This document shows, in pieces, positions 1-18,639 of a stretch of 18,639 bases of DNA. A program made the translations under genes and the position numbers. The DNA lies in contig RDOE01000064.1 of the NCBI GenBank assembly GCA_011364975.1, positions 1 to 18,639 of the forward strand, given 5' to 3'. The notes below the pieces were generated by a model. That model was not told the origin of the DNA, did not search any database, and saw only the letters and a list, made by a program, of their open reading frames with translations. The first letter of the stretch is position 1. Each line of letters starts with the position of its first letter. This DNA is from Promethearchaeota archaeon (lineage in GTDB: Archaea; Asgardarchaeota; Lokiarchaeia; Sigyniarchaeales; SOKP01).

Positions 1-83
1 ATATTCATCATATTATTTAATTGAGATTTTTAATTATAGATTAATTAAACAGAAATTTCAGAGTTATTCTGAGGTAATCATTC

Positions 84-312
84 TTAATGAAATATCAACT
101 CACGATAGCTTAAAAATTGGTTTGATAAGATACGATGTTTACAATCCTCTTACTTTTTCCGAATAAATAAAAATATTCTGAGATTTCAAGAGTGTTTCCA
201 AATATAACTCGATAAATATTGATAACAGAAATTTTTATATCTATTGGAAATAATTCAAAAACTCTAATATCATATTTTAAGGGAAACTTATCTAAGAATT
301 CTTTTTGTAATT
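84..312 (-). pseudogene. 3' remnant of an MNT (minimal nucleotidyltransferase) antitoxin gene; diverged second copy of 2695..2924
   Basis: Aligns by eye to 2695..2924, with exact tracts 99-146 = 2710-2757 (48 bp) and 227-264 = 2839-2876 (38 bp). It lacks the N-terminal GSX10DXD catalytic region. It has a 1-nt deletion in the A-run near 154-158, and the Trp codon (TGG) reads TAA. The homologous end YRELIFH* (vs YRERISY*) stops at 84-86. The ORF-track entry 110..325 is this remnant. Confidence 0.9.
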
Positions 313-347
313 CCTCGGGGATCAAAACCCCGAGGAAATTCAGGAAG
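301..347. repeat. GC-rich inverted repeat/hairpin: perfect 10-bp stem TTCCTCGGGG (311-320) / CCCCGAGGAA (328-337), 7-nt loop, extending imperfectly to 301/347
   Basis: Read directly from the sequence. The 20-bp arms match at 16/20 positions. It sits exactly where homology to the intact mnt gene stops (312). Confidence 0.85.
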
Positions 348-463
348 TGAAAGAAGAATTAAGCAAATTTGAGAAAAGATTTAAGGAAAGACTTTTGATA
401 TGGATTCAAATTATAGCAGGTATAGCATTTATTATTACGTTTGGCACCTCTTTGGTGCTATAA
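347..463 (+). CDS. Small ORF or 3' gene remnant: charged helix plus C-terminal transmembrane segment (VKEELSKFEKRFKERLLIWIQIIAGIAFIITFGTSLVL*)
   Basis: Frame is open from 311 to the TAA at 461-463. There is a GTG at 347 with GAGG at 332-335. The composition is protein-like, with a hydrophobic tail of about 22 residues. Not in the ORF track. Confidence 0.45.
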   Translation: MKEELSKFEKRFKERLLIWIQIIAGIAFIITFGTSLVL

Positions 464-605
464 TTCAAACGTATTCTAATTAAAACATTTTATGTCTATA
501 AAAAGATAAATCGAAGAAGTAATAATTGGCTAATTAGATATCTTTATTAGTAAGTTCTCTAATTAATATAATTACTATTCATTATGATTTAAAGGAGAAA
601 TTATT

Positions 606-1595
606 ATGGAAAGCTCGGTTTTTTTATCATTCGATGAATCTAAATTAGTATCTCATATTAAAATATATGAGAATCACTTAAAGCAAAAAATACACTTAAT
701 TCCTGTGTGTCACATCGGAACAAAAGAATACTTCCAAAATATTGTGGCGTATGTAGGGGAAGAAATCCCTTGTATTTATGAAAATTTAAAATTTGGTTCA
801 ATAGATGATAAATCTTACAAATCAAGTAAGACTTTAGACGATCTTATTGAATCCTATTATGAAAGTTATTATCAAAGTTATGATAAACACGGGCAGGAAT
901 ACAAGTCCCTTTTAAAAAATTTTTATAAAAAATATACTAGTAAAGAAGTTAAAAAGTTGCATAAATTAGTACGAAAAGAGGTTTTCAAATCTAGTAATAA
1001 GATTATACAAATATTTGATTTATGTGAAAAAACTAACTTCAATTTATTTAATACTTACGTATTACAGGTTTATTGGTGCGAAATGTTAGGTTTGGAACAT
1101 CAAATGATGACAATAGATTATGAAAATGATATTTTAAATCGCAACAATTGGTGCCATGGGGATTTAGATTTTAGCAAAATAAAAGATAAAACTAACCTAG
1201 AGGAAAAAATCAAGCAAATACTAATTAACCCAACCCAACAATTAATTAATGAATCGGAAAAAGAAAGAACTATGGTTATGGGTACACTTTTAGTAACGAT
1301 TAATTTTTATCGAATGGATAATTGCTCACAAAGAAGAAGAGAATTAGCAACATTATTAATCGAAAATATGACGACAATATTTCAAGATTTTGAAAACTCA
1401 TCTCCAGAAATTGTATTAAAGACGAGAAATACAATAGTAGAAAAGGGTATATCAATCCTGTTAGAAGAGTTTAATGAAATTATGGTTTTTTATGGAGCAA
1501 TGCATATGATTAGTATTGAAAGGTTTCTTCTAAATGAGGGTTTTAAATTGATTAGTGAAGAATCTTTTGAAGTGTTTAATGTGGATAATTCTTAA
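606..1595 (+). CDS. Hypothetical protein, probably TraB/GumN/Tiki-like metallohydrolase superfamily (329 aa)
   Basis: SD-like AAGGAG at 592-597. Motif order LIPVCHIG ... IYE ... TRN ... FYGAMHM resembles the H, E, RN and GxxH motifs of TraB/Tiki/EreA-fold proteins. The ORF itself is solid; the family call is from motif recall only. Confidence 0.6.
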   Translation: MESSVFLSFDESKLVSHIKIYENHLKQKIHLIPVCHIGTKEYFQNIVAYVGEEIPCIYENLKFGSIDDKSYKSSKTLDDLIESYYESYYQSYDKHGQEYKSLLKNFYKKYTSKEVKKLHKLVRKEVFKSSNKIIQIFDLCEKTNFNLFNTYVLQVYWCEMLGLEHQMMTIDYENDILNRNNWCHGDLDFSKIKDKTNLEEKIKQILINPTQQLINESEKERTMVMGTLLVTINFYRMDNCSQRRRELATLLIENMTTIFQDFENSSPEIVLKTRNTIVEKGISILLEEFNEIMVFYGAMHMISIERFLLNEGFKLISEESFEVFNVDNS

Positions 1596-1643
1596 TTAAT
1601 ACCACTTATTAGGTTTAAATCAATTTTTCATTTAACTTGTCTA

Positions 1644-2609
1644 TTATGGCACCTGTTCGAATCTGGCTTGAAAAAATCGGAGATATTTTGGTTCATACAC
1701 CATTTTTAAACCAGGAATTGTATCTCGCTTTTGATATAAACGAACAATAGATTCTGCTGTGTATTCCATATGTGAATTTGTATAAACTCTTCGAGGAATC
1801 GTAAGTCGAACTAATTCTAATGCTGGAAAGATATTCTCTCCAGTTTGCGAATCTCGCCCCTTGGAAACCGCACCACGTTCCATAGCCCTTACTGCGGAAT
1901 CTTCATAGATCGCCGCGGATAATGTTTGTGCTGGCCATTGTTCTCGGGGTATATGAGGTAAGAATTTTAAGGCATTAAGAAAAACTGCGTGTCCTCCGAT
2001 TGGTTTTACAATAGGAACTCCTGATTTCGCTAATAATTCTCCTAAATAACGTACTTGATTAATCCTATACCTTAAATATTCATACTGAGCACCTTCCCGT
2101 AAGCCACGTGCTACAGCTTCCATATCTCTTCCAGCCATTCCTCCATAGGTATGTAGACCTTCATAGATTACCACCGAACTACGGGTTGCCTCAAAGATTT
2201 CCAAATTATTCGTAGCTAAAAATCCACCAATATTAACTAAACAATCTTTTTTAGAGCTATATATGCACCCATCAGAATAACTCATCATTTCTCTCAATAT
2301 TTCAATTATGGGGGTGCTTTCATAACCTTTTTCTCTTTCTCTTATGAAGTAAGCATTCTCACTGGATCTTGTAGCGTCATAAATAATTTTTAATTTATAA
2401 TCATCACAAAACTCCCGTAATTTACGTAAATTTTCCATCGAGACTGGTTGTCCACCTGCCATATTTACATCCATTTCTAGATTGACAAATGAGATTTTAT
2501 CAACGCCATATTCATCAATATAGCTTTGAAGTTTATTAAAATCTACATTTCCCTTAAATGGGTGTGTATTTTCGGTATTACAATAACTAAGCATTAATTG
2601 ATTTTTCAT
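1644..2609 (-). pseudogene. tpl: 5'-truncated tyrosine phenol-lyase copy (residues 149-457 of the full gene) with 12 unrelated in-frame N-terminal codons
   Basis: 1647-2575 is colinear without indels with 11499-12427 (offset 9852). I counted 20 amino-acid differences in 309 residues. It keeps K257, R381, R404 and F448 but lacks Y71 and T124. The frame is uninterrupted. Confidence 0.9.
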
Positions 2610-2644
2610 CCATTGATTTTACTTTATTTTATTTCTTATCCTAT

Positions 2645-2662
2645 TTCTTATATAATAAAGAA
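2645..2662 (-). promoter_or_regulatory. Candidate archaeal TATA box (TTTATTATATAAG) upstream of the truncated tpl
   Basis: The minus strand reads TTTCTTTATTATATAAGAAAT about 35-45 nt before the ATGs at 2613 and 2609. The background is AT-rich, so support is weak. Confidence 0.3.
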
Positions 2663-2694
2663 ATGACCTTGTACCGCATTTTCTAATATTGCTC

Positions 2695-3087
2695 TTAATA
2701 TGATATGCGCTCACGATAGCTTAAAAATTGGTTTGATAAGATACGATGTTTACAATCATCCCACTTTTTTCTAAATAAGTAAAAGTATTCGGAGATGTCA
2801 AGAGGATCTCCAAATACTACTCGATAATTTTTAACAATAGAAATTTTTATATCTATTGGAAATAATTCAAAAACTCGAATATCATATTTTAAAGGGAACT
2901 TACCTAAGAGTTCTTTTTGTAATTTAATATTATATTCTTTATTAGTTTCATATGAAAGTATAGCGATATCAATATCTGATTTCGGACGTACTCCTCCCTC
3001 TACATTAGATCCATAGAGTATAACGTTATATTTATCCTTTAAATAATGCAAATCTTCTTCTAGTTTATTTAGGTCTGTTGATTTCAT
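2695..3087 (-). CDS. mntA: MNT / MntA-type adenylyltransferase antitoxin (type VII TA)
   Basis: Exact GSX10DXD motif (GS-NVEGGVRPKS-DID). About 130 aa from the ATG at 3087 (the ORF track extends to a TTG at 3111). Overlaps the end of the HEPN gene. Confidence 0.85.
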   Translation of the reverse strand: MKSTDLNKLEEDLHYLKDKYNVILYGSNVEGGVRPKSDIDIAILSYETNKEYNIKLQKELLGKFPLKYDIRVFELFPIDIKISIVKNYRVVFGDPLDISEYFYLFRKKWDDCKHRILSNQFLSYRERISY

Positions 3088-3478
3088 TAAAACACTTTTC
3101 GATAATTTCAATCCATTTTAATAGGAGATCTTTAACTTCATTAACGGATGTTAATATTAAATCTTCATCAATATCGTTATATCGATGAACTATTATATTT
3201 CTTAACCCATTTGCTTTTTTTAGTTTCTCTCCTAATTCAGGGCTTAACTTATGTACTTTAACAATCTCAGAAATATTAAAATTATCTTCTTTCACTTGGA
3301 TTCCTACATCTTTTACAAGCATTGCAATCAAATCAACCACAGCTTCAATAGATGTTTGAAGAGAGTAAAAAATTCCACGCTTTTCAAGTTCATTTTTAGG
3401 TTTTAATGGTAGGTCATGAATATATTCAAATACATGGTTGATCTTATCTCGATAACGTTTAATTCTTAGTTCATCCAT
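3065..3478 (-). CDS. hepT: HEPN (DUF86 / HepT-type) RNase toxin
   Basis: RX4HXY motif (RNIIVHRY) in a 137-aa helical protein, adjacent to and overlapping the MNT gene. Confidence 0.88.
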   Translation of the reverse strand: MDELRIKRYRDKINHVFEYIHDLPLKPKNELEKRGIFYSLQTSIEAVVDLIAMLVKDVGIQVKEDNFNISEIVKVHKLSPELGEKLKKANGLRNIIVHRYNDIDEDLILTSVNEVKDLLLKWIEIIEKCFNEINRPK

Positions 3479-3508
3479 TAACTTTCCTATCTTAATTTTA
3501 TATTCCTT

Positions 3509-3561
3509 TATTAGGTATATACTTAATAATACAATTTATATTCTACTATTTATATCCTAAT
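3509..3561 (-). promoter_or_regulatory. Candidate promoter and imperfect inverted repeat upstream of the HEPN-MNT operon
   Basis: The minus strand reads TTAGGATATAAATAG (TATA-like) at about 3546-3560. ATTAGGTATATA (3510-3521) is an imperfect inverted partner of TTATATCCTAAT (3550-3561). Confidence 0.3.
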
Positions 3562-3588
3562 CAATAGAGATTACAAAAAAATCTAATT

Positions 3589-4581
3589 TTAACTCGAAAA
3601 TTCTCTTTTCTGTAAACTAAATATGCCATAAAGCAATAATAACACCGCAATAATAAGCCATATTAGCAACGAGAAACTCGGTAAATAATAATTGGTCTTT
3701 TCTAATCCTCCTAATACGATATTTTGATCGGCATCCACTATTCCAAGATACGAATATACACTATAAACATCCGCAAAAGTTGATTGCCATCCGATTGAGG
3801 GGGGAAGCGCGTTAAACAGTTCTATAAACATCACATAAACATTTGCTAAGTGATATCCTAAATCGAAATGATAGAGTTGGAGATTTACGTAATCAAAATG
3901 TATTAATTCTCGAAGGAAAAAGAATCCAATATAAGGGATTATTACGAACAAAAATACAACTATTGTTGGGCTTCTGGGATTTTTAAAAATCGAGGAAAAC
4001 GCTAATGTTATACTCACAAAAATCAAGGAAATAACAACCGCATAGAGCAACACTGAAAATAAAAAGGGTGAAATCCCAAAAAAGTGAAAGATATTACCTG
4101 AATAGCGTAAGACGGAAATCCATCCCAACAAAAAGATTGTACAAAAACTTAATAATAACGCGAATATCAATAATGCTATGTACTTTCCAAGGAAAATCTT
4201 ATAGCGCTTTATAGGTTTACTTATAAGGATTACTATGGTTCCATTATTAATTTCTTCTGAAATAAGAGGGGCGCCGAAAAATCCAATGATGCTGGTTAAA
4301 ATAATACCAAATGTCCAAAAGAATAAAGGAAATGTCATTACTATAGCAATAAAAGAAGCAGCATGATGGATTGAGATCGCGCTAAAATCAAGGTCTACCG
4401 GGGCGAATATTTCTATTAAGGGGTATATTAACATTAAACACATACAAATGAAAAATTTGAGCGGTGAAAAAAGATCATAAAAAGTTTCTTCAATTAGCAC
4501 TAACGTGGGATATGATTTATTTTGATTAATTTGCTTCAATCTTTGCCGAGTCTTCTGTAATTTTTCTTTAAAGGTATACAC
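3589..4581 (-). CDS. ABC-2 type transporter permease (about 6 TM segments)
   Basis: Contains ISEEINNGTIVILISKPIKRYKIFLGKY, the typical ABC-2 permease loop, and multiple hydrophobic segments. Lies downstream of the ABC ATPase. Start is ambiguous (GTG at 4581; see findings). Confidence 0.9.
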   Translation of the reverse strand: MYTFKEKLQKTRQRLKQINQNKSYPTLVLIEETFYDLFSPLKFFICMCLMLIYPLIEIFAPVDLDFSAISIHHAASFIAIVMTFPLFFWTFGIILTSIIGFFGAPLISEEINNGTIVILISKPIKRYKIFLGKYIALLIFALLLSFCTIFLLGWISVLRYSGNIFHFFGISPFLFSVLLYAVVISLIFVSITLAFSSIFKNPRSPTIVVFLFVIIPYIGFFFLRELIHFDYVNLQLYHFDLGYHLANVYVMFIELFNALPPSIGWQSTFADVYSVYSYLGIVDADQNIVLGGLEKTNYYLPSFSLLIWLIIAVLLLLYGIFSLQKREFSS

Positions 4582-4609
4582 GATTCATAGTTCACCTCAT
4601 TTAACTAGC

Positions 4610-5554
4610 TTAACTAATAAGGCGCATAAATATTTGCTGTAACGATAGTTCTGGTTGATCAAAAGTAAATATCTTGACTTTAGGATCTAAGAGTATTTCT
4701 TTTATCAGTTCTTGTAATCTTTCTGAGTCTTTTGCTATAATATGAATTTTTCCGGATACATCGTCCATCCATGCGTTTAATATGAAATCTTTTACTTTCA
4801 ATTTCTCAATAATCGTTGAATTCATATTCGTATGCAATACGAATACATTCCCAATATACATTTTCTTAATATTGGCAAGAGAATCGGTTAATATAATTTT
4901 ACCTTGGTCTAAAATAGTTATGGAATCACAAATTTCTTCGATTTCGGATAAGATATGACTTGAAATAAAGACACTCATTGTTTTGGACAACTTTTTTATT
5001 TTTTCGATAATTGCTGAACGCCCAACTGGATCCAAATTTGTGGTAGGCTCATCTAAAATAAGTAATTTTGGATTGTGGATTATCGCTCCGGCAAGTGCGA
5101 CTTTTTGTTTCATTCCTCCTGAAAATTTCTTCAATTTCTTATTCCGTTCATTTAAAAGATTGAAATAATGTAATAATTCCTGAGCTTTCTCTCTAGCGTC
5201 ATGCTTATTTAGGCCACCAAGACGTCCCATGTAAACTAAATATTGCTCTGCGGTTTTCCGTTTATATAAGATGGGGTCTTGGGGTAAATAACCGATTAAT
5301 CGCCGTGCTTCTATTGAACCGGCGTCTTTTCCCCTTATCTTTGCCTCCCCTTTTGTTATAGAAAGGGCTCCAACAAGCATGTTTAAAGTAGTGGTTTTAC
5401 CTGCTCCGTTAGGACCAAGGAATCCATGAATCCCTGGTTTTATATTAAGATTAATTTTGGAGACGGCTTCAAATGCTTTATTTCGCTTTTCATATATTTT
5501 AGTTAAATCATGACTCCATATCTCATAATCTTGGAACGATCGTTCTTGAATCAT
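4610..5554 (-). CDS. ABC transporter ATP-binding protein (ABC-2/DrrA-like exporter)
   Basis: Walker A GPNGAGKT, signature FSGGMKQ, Walker B LLILDEP, H-loop SSH. ATGA overlap with the upstream giant gene. Confidence 0.95.
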   Translation of the reverse strand: MIQERSFQDYEIWSHDLTKIYEKRNKAFEAVSKINLNIKPGIHGFLGPNGAGKTTTLNMLVGALSITKGEAKIRGKDAGSIEARRLIGYLPQDPILYKRKTAEQYLVYMGRLGGLNKHDAREKAQELLHYFNLLNERNKKLKKFSGGMKQKVALAGAIIHNPKLLILDEPTTNLDPVGRSAIIEKIKKLSKTMSVFISSHILSEIEEICDSITILDQGKIILTDSLANIKKMYIGNVFVLHTNMNSTIIEKLKVKDFILNAWMDDVSGKIHIIAKDSERLQELIKEILLDPKVKIFTFDQPELSLQQIFMRLIS

Positions 5555-8500
5555 CCTAAATTCTTCTCCTCATTTAGTAATTCTATAGTAATTACAAGTC
5601 TTTCCCGCTTTCTTTTAGAAAGTCGATGATAGGCAACAAAAATACCAGCAAGGGTAGTAGAGATAGTTAAAGTCAGAATAAGAACAAAGTAATTCTCCAG
5701 AACTATTATATTTACAGTATCTATCGCAATCACACTTCCATCGAGGCTATACATGAACACATCAATTTTCTTTGCCCCACCCCCTAATGAAACACTTAAA
5801 TCGGTAGTTTTAATCGGTTTATAGCTATTTCCATTAATATAAACTCTAAAATAATTATATCTACTGCCTGTATCCCATTGTATATCAAATTCATTAGAGC
5901 GCATTATCTGCCCTTCTTCAAGATTAGTAAAGCGAACCTGAAATTTCGAGTTAAAGCAGGTGTATGTTCCACCATGAGAGATAAGCCATTCCCTCCTACC
6001 ATCTCCATTTAAATCTTTAAGAGGCATGAAGGAATCGAAATCTAGATTAAACCGATACAAGATCTTCTGATTAATAGGATCTAAAATTTCGACTACTTTC
6101 TCATCAGAATACGAATAATAATCCATATAAATAGAATATAACATTTTAGTGTATATATAACGTTTAATTAACACATCATCTTTTCCATCTCCACTGAAAT
6201 CTCCAATATTTCTGATAAAATCAAAAAAATCAATCCGGGCTGACGGAATACCCCACCCTTCCATGATAAAATGAAACGGTTCTAAGATCCATTTTTGGGC
6301 AGTCAACTCATCCATCTGGGATTCTGAACTGGAAAAAAGGTCGTAAAAACTAATATTCGCACCTTTAAAAGGAATATAAGAATTATAGATATTATGTATA
6401 CTAGTTTGCACACCAATAATCCCCTCGGAAATTCCATCATTGGTAATATCTCCAATTGATGCAAAGGGTAAATCTATTCCTGTTTCGATTTCCATTTTAT
6501 AGGGAGATTCTTTCCAAGATTCAGATACAGGAGGACTATATTTGCTTAGGATGTCATAATTATCCTCACCTGAAGCTCCGCTATAGATCCGAATTTCAGA
6601 AGTCTGATATTCCCCAAATTGGTTAGAGTAGGTTTTTAGATAACATCCTACATGATCTAAATAATTATCTCCATTAAAATCATCATAAGAAAGCAATAGT
6701 TTATATCCTGTATTCACTCCCCTCACCTCTTTCACATCACCATTTGAAAGCAAGTGATCCGCACTGATTTTGCTGGTGGTGGTTCTTGTACCCACATCAA
6801 CAATCTTTATATGCTTGTCGTTACCGCTATAATCTCCCAGGACAAGTCCAAGCTTACTACCATCTTTTGTTATATTGGTTTTTCCAAGAATAACATATTC
6901 CCCCAAATCAATTGACCACTGATAATTAATATGTGTTTTAGATTCATTATAATTGTCGAAATAAGATAATTGATCTTCCCATCGCGGATTTTGCATCAAC
7001 TTTATAGCAGTATAGTAATTTGTCCCCGTATCAAACATACCTCTTACCATCCAATAATTAAAAGAAGAATTTAATGATAACAAGGATATATCGTGATACG
7101 GAATATCGAAATGAGTACGACTCCATTTTATATAGCTTTTCTGATGTTTTATATCAAAAAGCATAAATCGGGTATTGCAGGTATTGTTGGAATTGTCTCT
7201 GCCGATTAACATTAGTACATCGGGATATTCATCTCCTGTCCCCTCTATCACTTCAAACTGTCGAATTTCTAAATCTAAGAGATTTGTATCGGTGAAATAT
7301 TGTTCTGCTGATAAATTATAATTATAAATATAATATCTATCATACTGATTCCCGAATAAACCCCAATAAAAAGTTCCTACCCCAAAAGATTGAATTGATG
7401 TTTCGAAAGCATGTTTACTATTTGTAATGTTTACACGAATGTTGAGATTTCTATTTGAATCAATGAAATGAGATAAGGTGGTTTCATTTTCAAAGTCAAA
7501 ATATAATCCATTTTCATAGTTATAGGTTCCTCTAGTAATAACATACATATCATCTCTTCGAAACGCCGTAGTAAGATTAAAACTATCAGAATTACTTCTA
7601 TAACCTCCGTTTGTCCCATTCCTAAAATTCCCATATAAATCAGGGTATTGCAAATTCCAGTATCTAGTCCCATTCCATGAACATTTAATCCACCTTCCGG
7701 TCGACTCCTCATAAATTTCATATGTAAAATTATACCAACTCGAATCCGATGAGTCATTGACCAATATACTCATCTGCATCTTCAACGCAGCAAACCGTTC
7801 TAGCTGAGAAAGCGGATAATCAAGTAAACCTAATTGTTCCTCAACACTAAAATCTATGGGAAGAGAAAAATTTAATGAAGTACACCAGTAATTGGTACCA
7901 GCGATATTTAACGCTTTTACAGAATAATTACCTGCATAATCCCTTATATCTAAAACACCACCCGCAATGTGTTCACCATATTCAATTTCAATAGCATTTG
8001 CATGAGATAACGTAGAAGGAAACCATTCATTTTCCCAAAGAATTTCATCCGATTGATTTATCCAAGAGGTAGGGAGGGGCTCATTTCTTCTTAAATAATA
8101 AGCATCCCCCTGTGATGTTAAATTAACGGGACTAAAGTATGTTCCCATATTTTCATAATCTCTATAAAAGTTGTACACAAAATCGGGTAATGCCCTATTC
8201 CAAAATACCTCTCCATTTGAACCATCGATAGCGATAAATCGGGTATAATTACTTAAAAGTGCTCTATATAATAATTCTTCTTGTTCACCATTATTTATGT
8301 TAAGATAATCCATCCCTGAAAGATTTTTTATGATATTTTTTGTTTCATTTGGAAGGTCTAAAGGGATCATCCATGCTACGTAATCTTTGATACCGTCATT
8401 AGTAGGATCTCCCACCTCCTTAATATCTCTTACTCCTTCATAGAAGTCTGGTTGGGGGATTGAAAATTTCCATATTGTATCTCCAGTTTGGGCATCGATA

Positions 8501-10251
8501 GTTAAAAACTCGGTTATTAATCCATTTGTAACTGTATTTGCGCTCCATTGAGGGTTAAAATCTTTTAATTTTTTGTAGAAAAAATCTCTTTCTCCGTCCC
8601 CATTAATGTCTTGAATCTGGGTCATTTCTGATTCTCCAAGAGTAATAGATCGTACCCAAACTACACTATTAGTTTTGCAATCAATTAATAGAGATTTACC
8701 ATATTTACTGATTGCAAATATATCGTCCACACCATCATTATTCACATCTCCGATATTGGTAAGGTAAAAAAAAGTTGTACCCTTTCCAAATGTTGGATCA
8801 ATATCTCTATCTCGATACGTAAATACAGGGGTACTAAAATTTGTGTTATCAAGAACAAAATCTTGCATCCTAATATTTAACCCATAAACCCCTGCAGATT
8901 CTTCAGGAGTATGATTTCTTAGCTGGAATACATACATATAAAACTTTAATACGGAATCGACCTTTAAAATTAAAGGATAAGAACTTGATAAAAAATAAAA
9001 CCATTCGTAAGTAAATTGTTGAATAAATTCAAGATTTCCATTGTTAATACTAAATACTGTACCGTTAATAGGACGATCTTTTAAATTATCCCAATTATAA
9101 TCAAGTTCTGTGCCAACAATTAAGAAATCTTCTCTTCCATCCTCATTGAGATCAGGAATGGGGATAAAGGCTGCTCCAGATGTCCGAAACAACCGCCTTA
9201 AGCTAGTATAAGGTGATGATATGTCTTGCGAATGATATTCAGTTATATCTGGATTAGATGTATCTAAAATTAGATTAGTAAACGAAAAAAATCTTAAGCT
9301 ATCAAGTAGTTTACCAGAATTCCCAGAAATAAGCAATACTTTCCCATTGTCAGATGCAACAAGGAGATCTGCAACATTATCATTATCAATATCATTAATC
9401 ACAATAATGTCATCAACAGAATTCGGGACATCAATTTGAGCGAAATCATTCAATACCGTCATCTTGAGGGGAGGGATTGTATAACTCCACACTTTTAGCC
9501 CATTTTTTTCATTAAGGGCAATTAATTCTCCATTTTCAGACCCTCCAATAACTATATTGTCTAAATACTTTATTTTCCAGATATCATTGGTAAAATCGTT
9601 AGTATTCATCCATAACACATCACCAGTTCTACCATTTAATACATATATCTTATACCAAGCAGATATTGCCACTTCAGAGATATTATCATTGTTAATATCA
9701 TTGATTGTCTGAACATCCCACGTATATGGAGTGTAATAGTCCATATTGAATGTATCTTGGTTAATTCTTTCTACTTGTGGTTGAAATGTCCATAGCTCTT
9801 TTCCATCTTTTGAAGAGATCGCAATCACATTAGGATGATGTTGGTCATAGACATTGATTATAATATCTTTAGCCAAATCGCCTGAAATGTCATTGATTAA
9901 ATCAAAATCTATCACCTCTCCAAAAGTAATATAACTCATTTCAAGATCACCATTCATGGAAAGAAGTGCTAGACTACCATCCATACCAACAACAATATAA
10001 GGTTCCCCGTTTTGTTCAAGGTAAACTAGCTTTGGTGGCATCGTTGGTCCGGTTCCGACCAGTCCTTGGCCATACGTCCAAAGAATCGCATTTTCTTTAA
10101 GGTTGCCATCTTGATTTTGAAGGTTATATGACGGTATAACAGTATTGGATTTATAAGAAGATAATTCAACAATTGGGATAAAAAAGCAATAAATTATGAT
10201 TAAGATTGTAAATTTATGACGTACTACATTATAAATCCTTTTTTTTCCCAT
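5551..10251 (-). CDS. 1566-aa type I membrane surface protein with FG-GAP/VCBS and PQQ-like beta-propeller repeats
   Basis: N-terminal basic plus hydrophobic signal segment. About 12 DxN/SxDGxxD-type motifs (e.g. DLNEDGRED, DVNNDGVDD, DINGDGERD, DFNGDNYLD, DLNGDGRRE) and PQQ-like 'GxxLW' blades. C-terminal TM (YFVLILTLTISTTLAGIFVAY) is followed by a basic tail. GAGG upstream of the ATG. Confidence 0.88.
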   Translation of the reverse strand: MGKKRIYNVVRHKFTILIIIYCFFIPIVELSSYKSNTVIPSYNLQNQDGNLKENAILWTYGQGLVGTGPTMPPKLVYLEQNGEPYIVVGMDGSLALLSMNGDLEMSYITFGEVIDFDLINDISGDLAKDIIINVYDQHHPNVIAISSKDGKELWTFQPQVERINQDTFNMDYYTPYTWDVQTINDINNDNISEVAISAWYKIYVLNGRTGDVLWMNTNDFTNDIWKIKYLDNIVIGGSENGELIALNEKNGLKVWSYTIPPLKMTVLNDFAQIDVPNSVDDIIVINDIDNDNVADLLVASDNGKVLLISGNSGKLLDSLRFFSFTNLILDTSNPDITEYHSQDISSPYTSLRRLFRTSGAAFIPIPDLNEDGREDFLIVGTELDYNWDNLKDRPINGTVFSINNGNLEFIQQFTYEWFYFLSSSYPLILKVDSVLKFYMYVFQLRNHTPEESAGVYGLNIRMQDFVLDNTNFSTPVFTYRDRDIDPTFGKGTTFFYLTNIGDVNNDGVDDIFAISKYGKSLLIDCKTNSVVWVRSITLGESEMTQIQDINGDGERDFFYKKLKDFNPQWSANTVTNGLITEFLTIDAQTGDTIWKFSIPQPDFYEGVRDIKEVGDPTNDGIKDYVAWMIPLDLPNETKNIIKNLSGMDYLNINNGEQEELLYRALLSNYTRFIAIDGSNGEVFWNRALPDFVYNFYRDYENMGTYFSPVNLTSQGDAYYLRRNEPLPTSWINQSDEILWENEWFPSTLSHANAIEIEYGEHIAGGVLDIRDYAGNYSVKALNIAGTNYWCTSLNFSLPIDFSVEEQLGLLDYPLSQLERFAALKMQMSILVNDSSDSSWYNFTYEIYEESTGRWIKCSWNGTRYWNLQYPDLYGNFRNGTNGGYRSNSDSFNLTTAFRRDDMYVITRGTYNYENGLYFDFENETTLSHFIDSNRNLNIRVNITNSKHAFETSIQSFGVGTFYWGLFGNQYDRYYIYNYNLSAEQYFTDTNLLDLEIRQFEVIEGTGDEYPDVLMLIGRDNSNNTCNTRFMLFDIKHQKSYIKWSRTHFDIPYHDISLLSLNSSFNYWMVRGMFDTGTNYYTAIKLMQNPRWEDQLSYFDNYNESKTHINYQWSIDLGEYVILGKTNITKDGSKLGLVLGDYSGNDKHIKIVDVGTRTTTSKISADHLLSNGDVKEVRGVNTGYKLLLSYDDFNGDNYLDHVGCYLKTYSNQFGEYQTSEIRIYSGASGEDNYDILSKYSPPVSESWKESPYKMEIETGIDLPFASIGDITNDGISEGIIGVQTSIHNIYNSYIPFKGANISFYDLFSSSESQMDELTAQKWILEPFHFIMEGWGIPSARIDFFDFIRNIGDFSGDGKDDVLIKRYIYTKMLYSIYMDYYSYSDEKVVEILDPINQKILYRFNLDFDSFMPLKDLNGDGRREWLISHGGTYTCFNSKFQVRFTNLEEGQIMRSNEFDIQWDTGSRYNYFRVYINGNSYKPIKTTDLSVSLGGGAKKIDVFMYSLDGSVIAIDTVNIIVLENYFVLILTLTISTTLAGIFVAYHRLSKRKRERLVITIELLNEEKNLG

Positions 10252-10617
10252 TGGTCCTCAGTTAAACAGCTCCAAAATTAATTTCATTTTTATTAACATA
10301 CGCCTTTAAATAAATAAATAGAGTATGTAATTATTTAAACATTTTTTATTTTTTACCTTTATGTCGTTAATTTATATCCTTATTGATAACGCAATCTTTA
10401 ATTTCCAATAAGAATCCAGAACAAAGAGCCGATAAGTTAACCCGCTATCCAGTAATTATTTATTAAAGAGCGTTCTGAATTATTAAGCTAAAATTGATTG
10501 AAATGTAAGCAATAGTAACGTTTAAGTACTTAGTTTGCTTTTTGTTATTCAATCCAAATTATACAAAAATATCAAAATTTCAAATTAATAATTATATTTA
10601 ATTTAAGAGGATTAACT

Positions 10618-11136
10618 ATGAAAAATATAAGAAAATTTCTAATTCTCTCATTTGCGCTCTGCATCATAATATTAACTACCTTCCCTTTATTTATTAGCGC
10701 AGGTTATCCCCCTGAATGGGTATTTGCATCGAGTGACGATGTAACTGTTGGAGAGACGGTTAGTGGAAATTATACTGACACATATTATAAAGATTCTTCT
10801 TATCATGAGATACAATGTTATCGTCATGGAACGTATGGGTATTGGGAGGCTATAGTTTTTTATGGTTTTGCTGGGAAATGCAGTAAAGTAAAGATATGGG
10901 TAACGGTAGATCCTTTGATTTATGGGAATTGTTTTAATGCTCGTGCGTATTACACAGATGAAAGTTCTGAAAGTTTGGGAAATTTTAATCCTCAATCGTA
11001 TTATGAATTTGATGTAGATAGCGGTAAATATTTAGATTCAATTCGAATTCAATATTATCTTGAATCAAATATAAATCCAGTTGAACGTTATATCTTTATA
11101 GATTATATAAGTTGTTATTGGACAGGGAATCCCTAG
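10618..11136 (+). CDS. Secreted hypothetical protein (172 aa), Tyr-rich, predicted beta-sandwich
   Basis: GAGG 7 nt before the ATG, signal peptide MKNIRKFLILSFALCIIIL..., four Cys in the mature region, followed by T-tracts. Confidence 0.8.
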   Translation: MKNIRKFLILSFALCIIILTTFPLFISAGYPPEWVFASSDDVTVGETVSGNYTDTYYKDSSYHEIQCYRHGTYGYWEAIVFYGFAGKCSKVKIWVTVDPLIYGNCFNARAYYTDESSESLGNFNPQSYYEFDVDSGKYLDSIRIQYYLESNINPVERYIFIDYISCYWTGNP

Positions 11137-11167
11137 TAGTGAATTTAATATATTGAGTAAATTTTGA

Positions 11168-11183
11168 TTTTTTTATTTTTTTT
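11168..11183 (+). terminator. Oligo-T tract, candidate archaeal intrinsic terminator
   Basis: T7-A-T8 about 30 nt after the stop of 10618..11136. Confidence 0.4.
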
Positions 11184-11492
11184 CTAATTACTTATTAACT
11201 TAATCAAATTATAAGGGTTATGCATAAAGGTTTGTAGTTCGTCGGATTAATTTCTCCTCAGAATTAAAGTAATGAGATTGTTCAAGACTTCTAAATCAAT
11301 TATGTCTCATATTTAAAGAGAGTGAAGCTATATTAACACCTGGATTGGTTGTTTGAATAAGAATTTAAAATTGTGACTGCAATTTTTTTAAAATTAGTTT
11401 AGAAAGGATATTTAAAAATCCTATTGAAAAATAAAAATAATCAGATTAGTCTCAGAGTTATTAATAAAGATAATTTTTTCCAAATCTGAGAT

Positions 11493-12869
11493 TTATAATG
11501 GTATTTGCTCAAATCTCGCTTGGAAAAATCGCAAGTATTTAGGTTCATATACCATCTTTAATCCAGATATTGAATCTCTCTTTTTATAAAGATTAATAAT
11601 AGAATTAGCAGTGTATTCCATATGAGTATTAGTATATACTCTCCGTGGGATCGTTAATCGTACTAATTCTAACGCCGGAAAAATATTCTCCCCAGTTTGT
11701 GAATCTCTACCTTTGGAAACAGCACCACGTTCCATAGTTCTTACCGCTGAATCTTCATAAATAGCCGCAGATAATGTTTGTGCGGGCCATTGTTCTCTCG
11801 ATAAATGAGGTAAAAATTTCAAGGCATTAAGAAATACCGCGTGTCCACCTATAGGTTTAACAATGGGGACTCCCGCTTTCATTAGTAGTTCCCCTAAATA
11901 TCGGACTTGATTAATCCTATATTTCAAATACTTGTATTGAGCTCCTTCTTGGAGACCTCGAGCAACGGCTTCCATATCTCTTCCAGCCATTCCTCCATAG
12001 GTATGTAGACCTTCATAGATTACCACCGAGCTACGAGTTGCCTCAAAGATTTCCTCATTATTCGTAGCTAAAAATCCACCTATATTAACTAAACAATCTT
12101 TTTTTGAACTATAAATACACCCATCAGAATAACTCATCATTTCTCTTAAAATTTCAATAATTGGGGTGTTTTCATATCCTTTTTCTCGTTCTCTAATAAA
12201 GTAAGCATTCTCACTTGAACGAGTTGCATCATAAATTATTTTAAGTTTATAATCATCACAGAACTCTCTCAACTTGCGTAAGTTTTCCATCGAGACTGGT
12301 TGTCCACCTGCCATATTCACATCCATCTCAACATTGACAAATGAGATTTTATCAACGCCATATTCATCAATATAGCCTTGAAGTTTATTAAAATCTACAT
12401 TTCCCTTAAATGGGTGTGTATTTTCGGGATCATGAGCCTCATCGATAATCATATCAACCATTTTCCCACCAGGTAATTCTACATGCACTTTGCTAGTAGT
12501 AAAATACATATTTCGTGGAACTATTTGCCCTGGTTTCACTAAATGGCTATACATTAAATGTTCTGCGCCTCTTCCTTGGTGAGTAGGTACTGTATATTTA
12601 AATCCGAGTATATCTTTAACTGCGTTCTCTAAGTTATAAAAATTTTTACTTCCAGCATATGCTTCATCTCCAAGCATCATACCAGCCCATTGGTTATCAG
12701 ACATGGCTGATGTGCCAGAATCAGTAAGAAGATCTATATATACATCTTCAGATAACAGCAAAAATGTATTAAAACCTGCTTCTCTTATGGCTTCTTTTCT
12801 TCTTTTTTCAGAAGGAAGATTTACAGGTTCAACAACTTTAATCTTAAAAGGTTCAGCTGGACCGTTCAA
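11493..12869 (-). CDS. tpl: Tyrosine phenol-lyase (beta-eliminating lyase family), full length, TTG start
   Basis: Colinear with Citrobacter freundii TPL numbering as I recall it: Y71, T124, N185, D214, R217, PLP-lysine K257, R381, R404, F448/F449. T124, R381 and F448 distinguish TPL from tryptophanase. Confidence 0.9.
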   Translation of the reverse strand: MNGPAEPFKIKVVEPVNLPSEKRRKEAIREAGFNTFLLLSEDVYIDLLTDSGTSAMSDNQWAGMMLGDEAYAGSKNFYNLENAVKDILGFKYTVPTHQGRGAEHLMYSHLVKPGQIVPRNMYFTTSKVHVELPGGKMVDMIIDEAHDPENTHPFKGNVDFNKLQGYIDEYGVDKISFVNVEMDVNMAGGQPVSMENLRKLREFCDDYKLKIIYDATRSSENAYFIREREKGYENTPIIEILREMMSYSDGCIYSSKKDCLVNIGGFLATNNEEIFEATRSSVVIYEGLHTYGGMAGRDMEAVARGLQEGAQYKYLKYRINQVRYLGELLMKAGVPIVKPIGGHAVFLNALKFLPHLSREQWPAQTLSAAIYEDSAVRTMERGAVSKGRDSQTGENIFPALELVRLTIPRRVYTNTHMEYTANSIINLYKKRDSISGLKMVYEPKYLRFFQARFEQIPL

Positions 12870-12894
12870 TTATTTCACTTCATTAAATTTTTAA

Positions 12895-12906
12895 TACTAA
12901 TTAGTA
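12895..12906. promoter_or_regulatory. Perfect 12-bp palindrome TACTAATTAGTA, candidate operator of tpl
   Basis: Lies 26-37 nt upstream of the tpl start. AT-rich, so chance occurrence is possible. Confidence 0.35.
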
Positions 12907-13021
12907 GTAAGTGAGAAGTATTGAAAAATATTACTTTATTTTCTGCCCATAGTTTTCCCATTGTATTAAAAAGGCGGATCTAATTACAGATTTCATTAGG
13001 ATCTTGAATAATGATAAAGAT

Positions 13022-17228: not shown

Positions 17229-18639
17229 ATGAAAAAGGATACAAGATTTATTGATGAAAATGGAAAAGTCCTTATGTTAGGAAATGAAGCAATTGTAAGA
17301 GGATGTCTCGAAGCAGGTGTTTCTTATGTTTCACAATATCCCGGAACACCCACAAGCGATATTGGTGAATACTTCCATCAAATCTTAAATGAATTTCCAG
17401 AGTTTAAAGAATACCTAGTTCATCAATGGGCAGTAAATGAAGCTGTAGCGGCCTCTTCGTGTGCAGGAGTTGCGTGGACCGGCTGTAGATCGTTTAATCC
17501 AATGAAGCACGTTGGTCTCAATGTTGCCTCGGATGCCCTAAGTGTTATTGCGCTTAACGGCCCAAATCCAGGTAGCATGGTTATCTGCGTAGGTTCTGAT
17601 CCTGGATCTTTAGGATCGCACCAAGAACAGAACGAGCGATTTTACGCATGGATGTTGCACCTTCCGACTATAGAACCACATACACCTCAAGAATGTAAAG
17701 ATTGGGTAAAACTTGCATTCGATCTTTCAGAAAAGTATGACTTAATTATAAATCTCCGAACTTCTACAAGAACTGCTCATTCAAGAGGTTTTGTGGAACT
17801 TAAATCTCTAAAAAAAGGAAAGGCTCAAGGAAAATTTATTCGAGATATCCCTAAATATAATTCACTACCACCACATGCTATTAATAATCATATTCGTCTA
17901 TATGAACGAATAGAGAAACTAAGAGCGGAAATTCCAAGAATGGGGTTAAATAAAATTTTATCCGGTGATAATCGAATAGGGATTATTACTAGCGGAATGC
18001 CTTATGGTTATACTATTGAAGCCTTAAAACAATTAAAATTATTTGATGTGCCTGTGTTAAAATTAGGAATGATTTATCCATTAAACTATGATGAAATCAC
18101 TAATTTTATTCAGAATCTTGAAAAGGTTATAGTAATTGAGGAGTTAGAACCATTTTTAGAAATGAAAGTTGCTGAGATTGCTCATACTCAAAAGTTAAAT
18201 GTTGAAATAATAGGTGAACAGTTTTTTCCAAAATATAATGAATTCTCTACGGGATTGGTAGCATCTTGCTTAGCAAAGATTTATAAACGAGCTCCGAGTG
18301 AAAGAATAACTAAAGCAATAGAGTACTTTAACACATATAAAGATATAATCCCAAGTAGATTTCCTACATTTTGCGCGGGATGTCCTGAGCGAGCCACTCT
18401 TTATACAATTTTAAAAGCGACGAATTCTCTTGAAAATACAGTGATTTGCGGAGATATAGGCTGTTACGTAATGTCATTTTTCCCACCACAAAACTGTAGT
18501 GATTTAATTATCTGCATGTCAGGAGGTTTAAGTGCAGCTATAGGGATGTCTTCTAAGACAGATCAGAAAATAATTGCTATGATAGGAGACTCTACTTTCT
18601 TTCACACTGGAATGCCACCACTTGCTGAAGCTGTTGGAT
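17229..18639 (+). CDS. iorA: Indolepyruvate:ferredoxin oxidoreductase alpha subunit (runs off the window end)
   Basis: Manual translation from the ATG at 17229 gives MLGNEAIVRG..YPGTP, NEAVA, MKHVGLNVASD, FCAGCP, GDIGCY and IGDSTFFHTG. Missing from the ORF track because there is no stop in the window. Confidence 0.93.
   Translation, partial: MKKDTRFIDENGKVLMLGNEAIVRGCLEAGVSYVSQYPGTPTSDIGEYFHQILNEFPEFKEYLVHQWAVNEAVAASSCAGVAWTGCRSFNPMKHVGLNVASDALSVIALNGPNPGSMVICVGSDPGSLGSHQEQNERFYAWMLHLPTIEPHTPQECKDWVKLAFDLSEKYDLIINLRTSTRTAHSRGFVELKSLKKGKAQGKFIRDIPKYNSLPPHAINNHIRLYERIEKLRAEIPRMGLNKILSGDNRIGIITSGMPYGYTIEALKQLKLFDVPVLKLGMIYPLNYDEITNFIQNLEKVIVIEELEPFLEMKVAEIAHTQKLNVEIIGEQFFPKYNEFSTGLVASCLAKIYKRAPSERITKAIEYFNTYKDIIPSRFPTFCAGCPERATLYTILKATNSLENTVICGDIGCYVMSFFPPQNCSDLIICMSGGLSAAIGMSSKTDQKIIAMIGDSTFFHTGMPPLAEAVG

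Follow-up and report, generated by a model that had tools for sequence, protein, structure and literature searches.

Two apparently stacked island alleles behind a tyrosine phenol-lyase gene in a Promethearchaeota archaeon and their probable joining by homology-anchored illegitimate recombination

Flexible genomic islands and defence islands occupy constant places between core genes. Displacement of C-terminal parts in Rhs loci was reportedly described by Jackson et al. in 2009, and homology-facilitated illegitimate recombination (HFIR) in bacteria is said to have been reported by Meier and Wackernagel in 2003 and by Prudhomme et al. in 2002. The present work deals with an 18,639-bp contig (C166) of a Promethearchaeota (Asgard) metagenome-assembled genome (MAG), on which the tyrosine phenol-lyase gene, tpl, is followed by a block of cargo genes and then by a diverged copy of the tpl 3′ end, 'tpl. 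The window, as this stretch is called below, is the entire contig, so that no reading is possible left of position 1; the MAG comprises 200 contigs and 3.74 Mb, with 99% completeness and 6% contamination, and the lineage is represented here by MAGs. In the accessible part of Kirchberger et al. 2017 (PMC5361080), displacement ('orphan') arrays arising through HFIR are proposed for type VI secretion system (T6SS) effector-immunity arrays of Vibrio cholerae, with their orphan immunity genes, and for the C-terminal tips of Rhs proteins, and measurements of HFIR in bacteria are given in the accessible part of PMC3240628.

Chromosomal gene exchange in Asgard archaea is little known. The integrated elements described in the accessible parts of PMC8813620 and PMC11529989 encode an integrase or a transposase and insert at tRNA genes or at short att sites: the former reports aloposons at tRNA genes, and the latter elements resembling integrative and conjugative elements (ICE-like) with 11-bp att sites, with 'defense islands' among the integrated elements. 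The term 'homologous recombination' has 0 occurrences in the main texts of the two papers. In this setting, the window and a conspecific metagenome contig, L110, form a base-exact before/after pair for the integrase-free addition of 9.9 kb. We propose, with a probability of roughly 0.6, that two island alleles were stacked here by homology-anchored illegitimate recombination, for which no dedicated recombinase or cassette machinery would be needed. The finding is a case study of a mechanism and not a new class of mobile element.

A displaced tpl end and its junction

On the minus strand, the window reads from a glutamate-1-semialdehyde (GSA) aminomutase-like gene through hypB and a hexapeptide-protein gene into tpl (12869–11493), followed by the convergent gene of a 172-aa protein and the genes of a 1566-aa propeller protein, an ABC ATPase and an ABC-2 permease (together cargo A). 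HepT, MntA and the spacer J1 come next, then 'tpl (2578–1642), the convergent orfB, a remnant of a gene called c20, 'mnt (312–82) and, after a further 81 nt, the contig end (Table 1). The tpl repeat (11494–12430 versus 1642–2578) is ungapped and identical at 801 of 937 positions (85.5%), with an offset of 9852, and the mnt repeat (232 nt, 2693–2924 versus 82–312) is ~85–87% identical, with an offset of 2612 and then 2611. A self-BLAST of the 3.74-Mb genome returned 58 local repeat pairs, and only the tpl and mnt pairs are both at least 79% identical and more than 1 kb apart.

A preliminary description of this DNA had listed these repeats and this gene order, with two genes each recurring as a 5′-truncated, diverged copy in the same orientation, and every position was recovered. 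It had also pointed to the absence of a recombinase, a transposase and a tRNA attachment site, which the searches bear out: no recombinase, integrase, transposase or phage family was found among the window proteins with Pfam, PHROG and NCBIfam profiles, no virus or plasmid hallmark was found, and no tRNA genes or Rfam families were found in the window. Nor was a recombinase found in the 5.6 kb past the right end of the window, as read in L110.

L110 was found in a scan of metagenome contigs with tpl (80 loci) and is 97–99% identical to the window at the nucleotide level between the indolepyruvate oxidoreductase gene and the hexapeptide-protein gene, hypB included. Its gene series runs from tpl through the complete cargo A operon to HepT, MntA and J1, without 'tpl, orfB or 'mnt; this arrangement (tpl – cargo A – HepT – MntA – J1), named allele P below, exists alone in L110. 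The two contigs are colinear from position 18639 to 2578 (93.7% identity over 16,074 columns), and homology ends exactly at 2578/2579. Past this breakpoint, the window continues with tpl from nt 440 onward, and L110 with an A-rich spacer, an open reading frame (ORF) for a 51-aa zinc-ribbon protein and the C-terminal part of a PHO4 phosphate transporter. Because L110 has J1 without 'tpl, J1 is the native sequence behind mnt. At the joint, J1 ('...TTATTGTAA') is followed by 'TACCGAAAAT' in the window versus 'AAAAAATTT' in L110, with at most about 1 nt shared, and the J1|'tpl joint reads as illegitimate, with room for an overlap of about one base. At the other side, the identity between the window and L110 falls from 95–100% to ~83% at about nt 240 of tpl, runs at 86–96% through cargo A and reaches 98% in HepT; the drop places the left border of the exchanged island inside tpl. 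The preliminary claim that two allelic versions were joined additively agrees with these results, since allele P occurs alone in L110, homology ends at the start of 'tpl and 'tpl adjoins orfB as tpl does in relatives.

Table 1. Features of the window, in its own coordinates
Feature	Position	Strand	Evidence or remark
Intact tpl, 458 aa	11493..12869	-	TIGR02618 725.8 bits vs cut-off 720.7; Pfam Beta_elim_lyase; 3′ 937 nt = repeat copy 1
First ~240 nt of tpl	12630..12869	-	Last stretch 95–100% identical to L110, then ~83% (three-way and sliding identity profiles)
'tpl, 3′ 937 nt of second tpl allele (codon 147 to stop)	1642..2578	-	Open frame; ORF 1644–2609 using ATG in J1
Spacer J1 (114 nt)	2579..2694	-	Sequence 3′ of mnt in allele P; also in L110; apparent illegitimate junction at 2578/2579
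MntA-like nucleotidyltransferase, intact mnt	2695..3111	-	Pfam NTP_transf_2 E 5e-11; NCBIfam MntA_antitoxin 43.9 bits vs cut-off 60; 3′ 232 nt = repeat copy 1
HepT-like HEPN RNase (type VII toxin–antitoxin toxin)	3065..3478	-	Pfam HepT-like E 4e-18; NCBIfam HepT_toxin 59.9 bits vs cut-off 60
orfB, 329 aa, no family	606..1595	+	Convergent with 'tpl, 48 nt away; adjacency also with intact tpl in relatives
c20', last 47 codons of gene beside tpl in relatives, 5′-truncated	320..460	+	tblastn 59.6% identity, E 3e-12
Perfect 10-bp inverted repeat, 7-nt loop, at c20'|'mnt junction	311..337		Unique in genome
'mnt, 3′ fragment of second mnt (codon ~63 to stop)	82..312	-	1-nt frameshift
Tail behind 'mnt	1..81		Up to contig end; without homology to J1 or L110
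172-aa protein, N-terminal hydrophobic segment, convergent with tpl	10618..11136	+	No Pfam/NCBIfam/PHROG match; 58.5% homologue beside same operon in G142
1566-aa beta-propeller (PQQ_2, FG-GAP) protein, C-terminal hydrophobic segment	5551..10251	-	Pfam
ABC transporter ATPase	4610..5554	-	Pfam ABC_tran E 2.5e-29
ABC-2 family permease	3589..4581	-	Pfam

The presence of this arrangement in natural populations was followed in public sequencing runs. In 20 of these, drawn from seven studies, 60% or more of the 31-mers sampled from window positions 1–3600 are present. Logan contigs of four runs from four studies (X1, X5, X7 and X11) were aligned at 95% identity or more; these contigs are short, cannot prove long-range linkage and drop rare forms. 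The passage from the tpl 3′ end into cargo A is bridged by contigs of X11 (10077–12078) and X7 (11007–11774), and that from orfB into 'tpl by contigs of X1 (856–2145), X11 (891–2177) and X7 (581–1982). Two alternative joints were found. One connects 2666 to 3392 with AATT between (X1 and X7) and loses mnt and most of HepT; the other, seen in one table only, connects 1593 to 3472 with TTG between (X7) and sets the spacer of cargo A directly against the end of orfB. Contigs also depart from the window sequence at 3586 (X1 and X5, with the same consensus), 3571 (X7), 11407 (X11) and 2617 (X1). The joints and departures indicate that the locus is structurally polymorphic in nature, and the joints in particular that not every member of the population has the toxin–antitoxin (TA) pair and 'tpl. 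Summed over words, cargo A has ~2x the depth of the backbone in X1, X5 and X7, with lower values for the 'tpl–orfB pieces and no cover at 623–1866 in X5; as contig depths do not measure copy number and a gap in cover is no proof, depth is taken as a hint of polymorphism only.

The same polymorphism, with its many loose ends and two alternative joints, is what a chimera would feed on, in which the assembler concatenated two co-occurring strains; the 6% contamination of the MAG, the differing word depth of cargo A and the fact that the exact 321-aa ORF of 'tpl is on record only from this contig's own records point the same way. Such an artefact is nevertheless decidedly improbable. The partners at J1|'tpl share no k-mer-sized sequence, so that a de Bruijn assembler has nothing to jump on, and jumping on the longest identical runs between the tpl copies (~50 nt) would yield a hybrid tpl and not this order. 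Furthermore, the same architecture is found in four other assemblies, in two of them on contigs of 125 kb and 191 kb, and the conversion patches described below fit both copies residing in one genome.

Diverged copies and their recurrence at other tpl loci

The product of tpl matches TIGR02618 over profile positions 1–450 and above the equivalog cut-off, by a narrow margin and with the tryptophanase subfamily model matching too; the displaced ORF 1644–2609 (321 aa) matches Beta_elim_lyase from profile position 97 on. Over 311 codons, the copies show a synonymous divergence (dS) of 0.88 and a nonsynonymous divergence (dN) of 0.044 (omega 0.05), with zero indels or stops in 937 nt. Their identity is mosaic, at 95% for nt 441–593, 84% for nt 594–746, 94% for nt 747–899, 77% for nt 900–1052, 86% for nt 1053–1205 and 77% for nt 1206–1374; the mean identity of tpl between species of the genus is 73–80% in each of these six segments. 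The copies are thus as far apart as species (mean 73%) in nt 900–1052 and 1206–1374, yet L110, with a backbone identity of ~98%, has no second copy, which argues that the divergence did not arise in place. In a three-way comparison, tpl and 'tpl agree against L110 in runs at nt 444–528 and nt 725–879 and all three are distinct elsewhere; these runs are read as probable gene conversion once both copies lay in one genome. An intact 461-aa tpl product encoded on another contig (P0003) agrees with 'tpl at 15 of the 20 residues that distinguish the window copies, hence a full-length allele of the 'tpl type exists.

Taken together, the copies are best regarded as diverged functional alleles rather than in-place duplicates. 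An in-place duplication, both of the tpl 3′ end and of mnt, with later divergence would explain why the tpl copies are each other's closest relatives in the tree, and is hardly credible on all other counts: an omega of 0.05 at this dS means long selection in both copies, L110 lacks a copy at only ~2% difference in the backbone, the divergent segments equal between-species distances and residues of 'tpl recur in the intact allele P0003. Two further propositions were dropped. Relaxed constraint in 'tpl was suggested by 16 derived replacements versus 6 in the intact gene, with 45 versus 46 silent changes (polarised with 29 species-level relatives); since P0003 has 15 of the 20 deviating residues, only ~5–6 changes are private to 'tpl, at most a faint sign of decay. 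Naming a donor by phylogeny failed because trees of the tpl 5′ part, the divergent columns and the conserved columns conflict (e.g., in the placement of L065) and show only that tpl is mosaic. Separately, a second beta-eliminating-lyase paralogue of ~540–550 aa, 35–37% identical to tpl, is kept across the order (G000:C83:22-222 and many relatives, e.g., G024:C13:52380-53540) and matches in two blocks ~150 nt apart within one open frame.

The preliminary description had predicted 'tpl remnants with other cargo in relatives, and four more were found. Three overlapping sources were searched: 135 family genomes (for which matches are those listed), 80 metagenome loci and 80 genome loci. At least four further loci carry an intact tpl and, downstream in the same orientation, a diverged 3′ fragment with homology to the stop codon. 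In L148, the fragment (474 nt, 89% identical) begins at tpl nt 899 and is separated from tpl by 5.1 kb of cargo including the gene of a 616-aa LmuB-like SMC ATPase. In L190, judged by length and coordinates the same contig as L237, it begins at nt 1045 (85%) behind a class I/II aminotransferase gene, in L238 at nt 1191 (85%) behind a TIR protein gene and in L254 at nt 1132 (79%) behind a small ORF. Together with nt 440 in the window, all five breakpoints differ, which gives no indication of a site-specific process; the repeats span 172–937 nt and 79–89% identity. The cargos of the five loci share no genes, the junction sequences are unrelated and without a common core, and profile searches found no recombinase, integrase, transposase or phage family in the cargos of L148, L190, L238 and L254, nor did any of these four loci yield a tRNA. 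The fragment in L190 is followed by the same GNAT and 349-aa protein genes that lie behind a lone 5′-truncated tpl in the complete genome G085.

These loci also bear on the idea of an element that integrates site-specifically in the tpl 3′ part and brings a replacement 3′ end, its integrase being lost or acting in trans. Lambdoid prophages integrate at icd in a similar way, with a replacement 3′ gene end, and the layout of an intact gene, an element and a displaced 3′ end in direct orientation would suit it. It is very unlikely, since no integrase was found in the five cargos or flanks examined, five breakpoints share no core, the cargos have no gene in common and no virus or plasmid hallmark, and homology always runs to the stop codon, as for allelic genes and unlike an att core.

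Among 42 genus genomes searched, the window genome alone has a second long tpl match on one contig, hence stacking is rare relative to plain replacement. As a control, 160 loci centred on tpl (1.95 Mb) were compared with themselves by BLAST. Of the resulting 19 repeat rows, 4 are the tpl cases; the others are tandem internal repeats or other pairs (L115, L124, L161, L223, L229, L233, L256, L257 and L264). Enrichment of tpl is seen among these rows, but the loci had been picked via tpl. A common break site was considered on account of breaks near window codon 147 in G021 (aa 140), G023 (aa 151) and G004 (from aa 118), and rejected because the breaks over all genus genomes spread from nt 305 to nt 1148.

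Several side observations concern the same gene. Diverged direct repeats in L161 (7176-8297/11380-12497, 79%) and L264 (5491-6150/7019-7677, 91%) start 6–90 nt from the tpl stop codon and are other kinds of rearrangement at the same border. In the L148 cargo (L148:5036-9921), the 616-aa ATPase matches Lamassu LmuB end to end (PADLOC, E 1.4e-29) next to four ORFs without a family, and this cargo may be an archaeal Lamassu-like defence system. Only broken tpl was seen in G022 (L041:2329-2928), where aa 1–100 are fused to aa 394–456 by an internal deletion, and in the single-contig genome G085 (L191:10059-10769), which has aa 220–456 (a 5′ truncation) and no intact copy that could be found; the same holds for G121 (L193), with a frameshift near aa 358. 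While tpl DNA was matched in 40 of the 42 genus genomes, G000 included, the gene was not found in several genera of the family among the matches listed, and it seems dispensable in parts of the family. In L184 (668-2087), tpl is covered by two overlapping matches (aa 1–92 and aa 76–458), which suggests a small internal duplication or a frameshift. Finally, contig ends cut tpl in G002, G004, G021, G023, G024, G139 and G143, often with ends that overlap by 53–113 nt; this is above the expectation from contig sizes and fits strain-level heterogeneity at tpl.

The island behind tpl and the proposed origin of the stack

The surroundings of tpl were compared in 21 oriented loci (with 15 genus loci extending to the c2 backbone) as well as in the 80 loci from metagenomes. 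The usual order, in the genus and in many metagenome loci, is hypB, the hexapeptide-protein gene, in most relatives c8, tpl, 0–3 variable genes, PHO4, a PhoU-like gene and the adenylosuccinate synthetase gene (purA). The variable genes include orfB homologues, c20 and genes of S-adenosylmethionine (SAM) methyltransferases, an alpha/beta hydrolase, TIR-domain proteins and a DUF3303 protein. With its fixed position between core genes and its differing content, the stretch behind tpl has the properties of a small flexible genomic island. The region downstream of tpl had been described as variable at the outset, and an invariant gene order was not seen. The upstream side of tpl varies too, as shown by c8, a gene for 270–280 aa between the hexapeptide-protein gene and tpl in most relatives, which is absent from the window (12870–13021), L110 and a few others. 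The window genome has purA, c6 and c9 on a different contig, whose end falls inside purA.

Homologues of orfB are convergent with an intact tpl and follow it directly in 5 of the first 20 loci of relatives, as well as in other loci from metagenomes, and proteins at least 90% identical to orfB are encoded on five other short contigs. The window orfB has no match in Pfam, NCBIfam or PHROG. Of the cargo labels given earlier, the 'TraB-like' one of orfB goes back to a sub-threshold Pfam match (E 0.0054) of one of its homologues, and a supposed small transmembrane ORF is the 3′ remnant of c20.

These comparisons point to the following origin. The anatomy, the exact junction, the occurrence of allele P by itself, the allelic divergence and the recurrence are shown, and from them we infer which way DNA was transferred, the succession of events and the enzymology. 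Allele P would have comprised tpl, the secreted protein, the giant propeller protein, the ABC exporter, HepT/MntA and J1, and a second allele, Q, would have comprised tpl, orfB, c20 and (HepT)/MntA. Both would have met in one cell, where the incoming segment may have paired in the conserved tpl or the upstream backbone, one-ended homologous recombination being the most likely route. The far end would then have been sealed by end joining inside the resident tpl, attaching the end of J1 to nt 440 of the Q tpl without homology. The product would be one intact tpl, with the old 3′ end ('tpl) and the old neighbours pushed downstream as scars. A second illegitimate event would have removed the stretch from the 5′ part of c20 through HepT to the 5′ part of mnt, leaving c20'|'mnt, and after stacking the tpl copies would have swapped patches by gene conversion. 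Where tpl is useful, products lacking a complete copy probably do not last, so that the retained fragment would always be a 3′ piece and lie downstream.

A Campbell-type route, put forward in the preliminary description, would reach the same end product: a fragment with the tpl 3′ part, cargo A, HepT/MntA and J1 circularises through a joint between J1 and tpl nt 440 and then enters the resident tpl by a single crossover. This would give exactly the observed architecture and the 9852-bp offset, and the arms of 172–937 nt in all five instances would suffice for the crossover. Circular forms of integrated elements are known in other Asgard archaea, but with integrases and short att sites, according to the accessible part of PMC11529989. 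We consider this route unlikely because of its extra step, illegitimate circularisation and crossover being two events where one-ended recombination needs one, and because nothing points to a circle: neither the joint of the proposed 9852-bp circle nor a precise excision skipping 9852 nt was found among the contigs of the four runs, although contigs may let rare forms escape. In addition, nt 441–540 of 'tpl, donor DNA in this model, is only 78% identical to tpl of the one known P-type strain.

Several points weigh against the proposed stacking of two alleles. No locus was seen that has allele Q by itself, the assembly of the window genome gave no PHO4 or PhoU, and the return of the backbone is unseen as the contig ends 81 nt past 'mnt. 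The J1|'tpl junction is documented by this contig itself alone, and the X1 Logan contig with a match up to 2617 gives no proof of spanning 2578/2579 by 31 nt on each side. In a tree with 32 relatives, tpl and 'tpl are sisters, with 86% support on the divergent columns, which would place the second allele in a close, unsampled lineage. Past nt 240, the window tpl is only ~83% identical to that of L110, so that a P donor of the L110 type requires a further exchange inside tpl. A circular intermediate would leave the same product, and we know of no demonstration of DNA uptake, cell fusion or HFIR in Asgard archaea.

The right-hand part of the stack argues against a more elaborate scheme. HepT and MntA genes are adjacent and overlap by 47 nt, the layout of the type VII HepT/MntA pair, and their translations show Rx4H and GS..DxD motifs, which we take to be those of the two families. 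As both scores lie under the curated cut-offs, the pair is classed as a family-level relative and not as an equivalog. Among the tpl loci examined, it lies behind tpl only in the window and L110, and homologous pairs occur at other places in 62 of the 135 family genomes. The second mnt copy carries a 1-nt indel and is hence frameshifted. Between it and c20', ~6 nt (313–318) of the inverted repeat at 311–337 belong to neither gene and equal the reverse complement of c20' bases 330–335; such filler is presumably the footprint of snap-back priming or hairpin processing in end joining. A single deletion or illegitimate joint removing the c20 5′ part, HepT and the mnt 5′ part would explain both truncations. 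The inverted repeat is GC-rich within DNA of ~27% G+C. A second truncated mnt in G003 (aa 61–137) was discarded as merely cut by a contig end.

The preliminary description had taken the HEPN/MNT genes as the right-hand boundary of the variable slot and the mnt 3′ end as a reusable arm, in a selected cassette system whose tpl and mnt 3′ ends stand ready for repeated swapping or stacking of cargo. There is something to be said for such a system: the order tpl–cargo–'tpl occurs at five loci, often with defence-like cargo (HepT/MntA, the LmuB-like ATPase, TIR), the displaced frame is still open, conversion patches indicate that the arms recombine, and the population varies around the unit, as the joints 2666->3392 and 1593->3472 show. 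However, mnt is a boundary only in this species, and 'mnt, frameshifted and abutting a truncated gene with templated palindromic filler, looks like the scar of a deletion or of end joining; each instance has its own breakpoint, with no shared sequence or structure at the junctions, and stacking is rare compared with replacement (1 of 42 genus genomes). A selected cassette system is quite improbable on this evidence. The term claims too much for what looks like illegitimate recombination, anchored by homology and repeated at an island border, with tpl breakpoints that differ in 5 of 5 cases and speak against a defined site. From the preliminary interpretation, the variable region, the additive joining of alleles, the absence of a recombinase and the recurrence stand, and the HEPN/MNT boundary, the mnt arm, the circle and the cassette system find no support.

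Cargo A also occurs apart from tpl. In blastn searches, G017 and G142 match the window with 71% nucleotide identity over exactly 3588–10116, ending at the stop codon of the permease gene, and G142 also has the small convergent gene. The flanks of the operon differ among the window, G017 and G142, with no tpl or TA pair in the flanks of the latter two, and homologues of the giant propeller protein occur in 25 of the 135 family genomes. By these comparisons, cargo A has the character of a module that moves. The operon stands on whole contigs of 12–13 kb in L059 (G017:C16) and L060 (G142:C87), which are 92.7% identical over 6.9 kb with unrelated flanks, and a gene for a SUFU-domain/TPR protein lies near it in G017.

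Comparison with described systems

With four independent parallels at tpl, the before/after pair suggests that accessory and defence islands of this clade owe their shape to illegitimate recombination anchored by homology, and the scars make such events countable in MAGs. A broader reading, tentative and on balance doubtful, is that the tpl 3′ part serves in Promethearchaeota as a recurrent recombinase-free landing pad, where defence or surface modules bring their own tpl 3′ end and displace the resident one downstream. Were this true, the locus would be an archaeal, non-toxin counterpart of the orphan arrays of Rhs and contact-dependent inhibition (CDI) systems. It could represent a general Asgard route to build and reshuffle accessory islands, whose retained arms allow later switching by gene conversion.

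Among described systems, Asgard integrase-borne elements, as far as the accessible parts of PMC8813620 and PMC11529989 describe them, resemble the locus in having multi-kb cargo blocks in some strains only, one of them with a giant protein gene. They differ in that the locus has no integrase, transposase, ParA/ParB, tRNA target or short att site, its repeats being 172–937 nt of diverged coding sequence. Unlike integrons, it has no integrase, and its junctions are mutually unrelated, with a sole palindrome (311–337) that is unique in the genome. It shares with flexible and defence islands the same position across species, a varied content (methyltransferases, TIR, hydrolase, Lamassu-like ATPase, TA pair) and a divergence raised from the border inward; in contrast to them, its border lies inside a core gene, and stacking left datable scars that reveal the joining mechanism.

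Likeness to bacterial HFIR, in the terms of the accessible part of PMC3240628, lies in one end being joined by homology and the other with little or none, as seen in the ~1-nt overlap at J1|'tpl and the templated filler at c20'|'mnt. Unlike there, the process is deduced here purely from sequence, and the illegitimate joint falls inside the anchor gene, which results in a duplication and not a deletion. HFIR displacement arrays likewise have an illegitimate distal junction (~1 nt at 2578/2579 here) and an added block that exists independently elsewhere (L110; G017 and G142). The closest match is with T6SS and Rhs arrays as presented in the accessible part of PMC5361080: a conserved upstream anchor with new DNA beside it, the older 3′ part and its neighbours kept as 5′-truncated remnants in the same orientation, no integrase, and plain replacement far commoner than additive stacking. 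The differences are that the anchor here is the gene of a metabolic enzyme, the displaced piece serves neither as toxin nor for immunity, and orfB and c20 have no family; furthermore, the host is an Asgard archaeon, the cargo consists of whole operons (surface protein and ABC exporter, TA pair, defence genes) and there is one stacking layer per locus. The locus is thus not an integron, an integrase-borne element or an aloposon, and, although it lacks a polymorphic toxin, which is one of their defining features, it works like the Rhs and T6SS displacement arrays.

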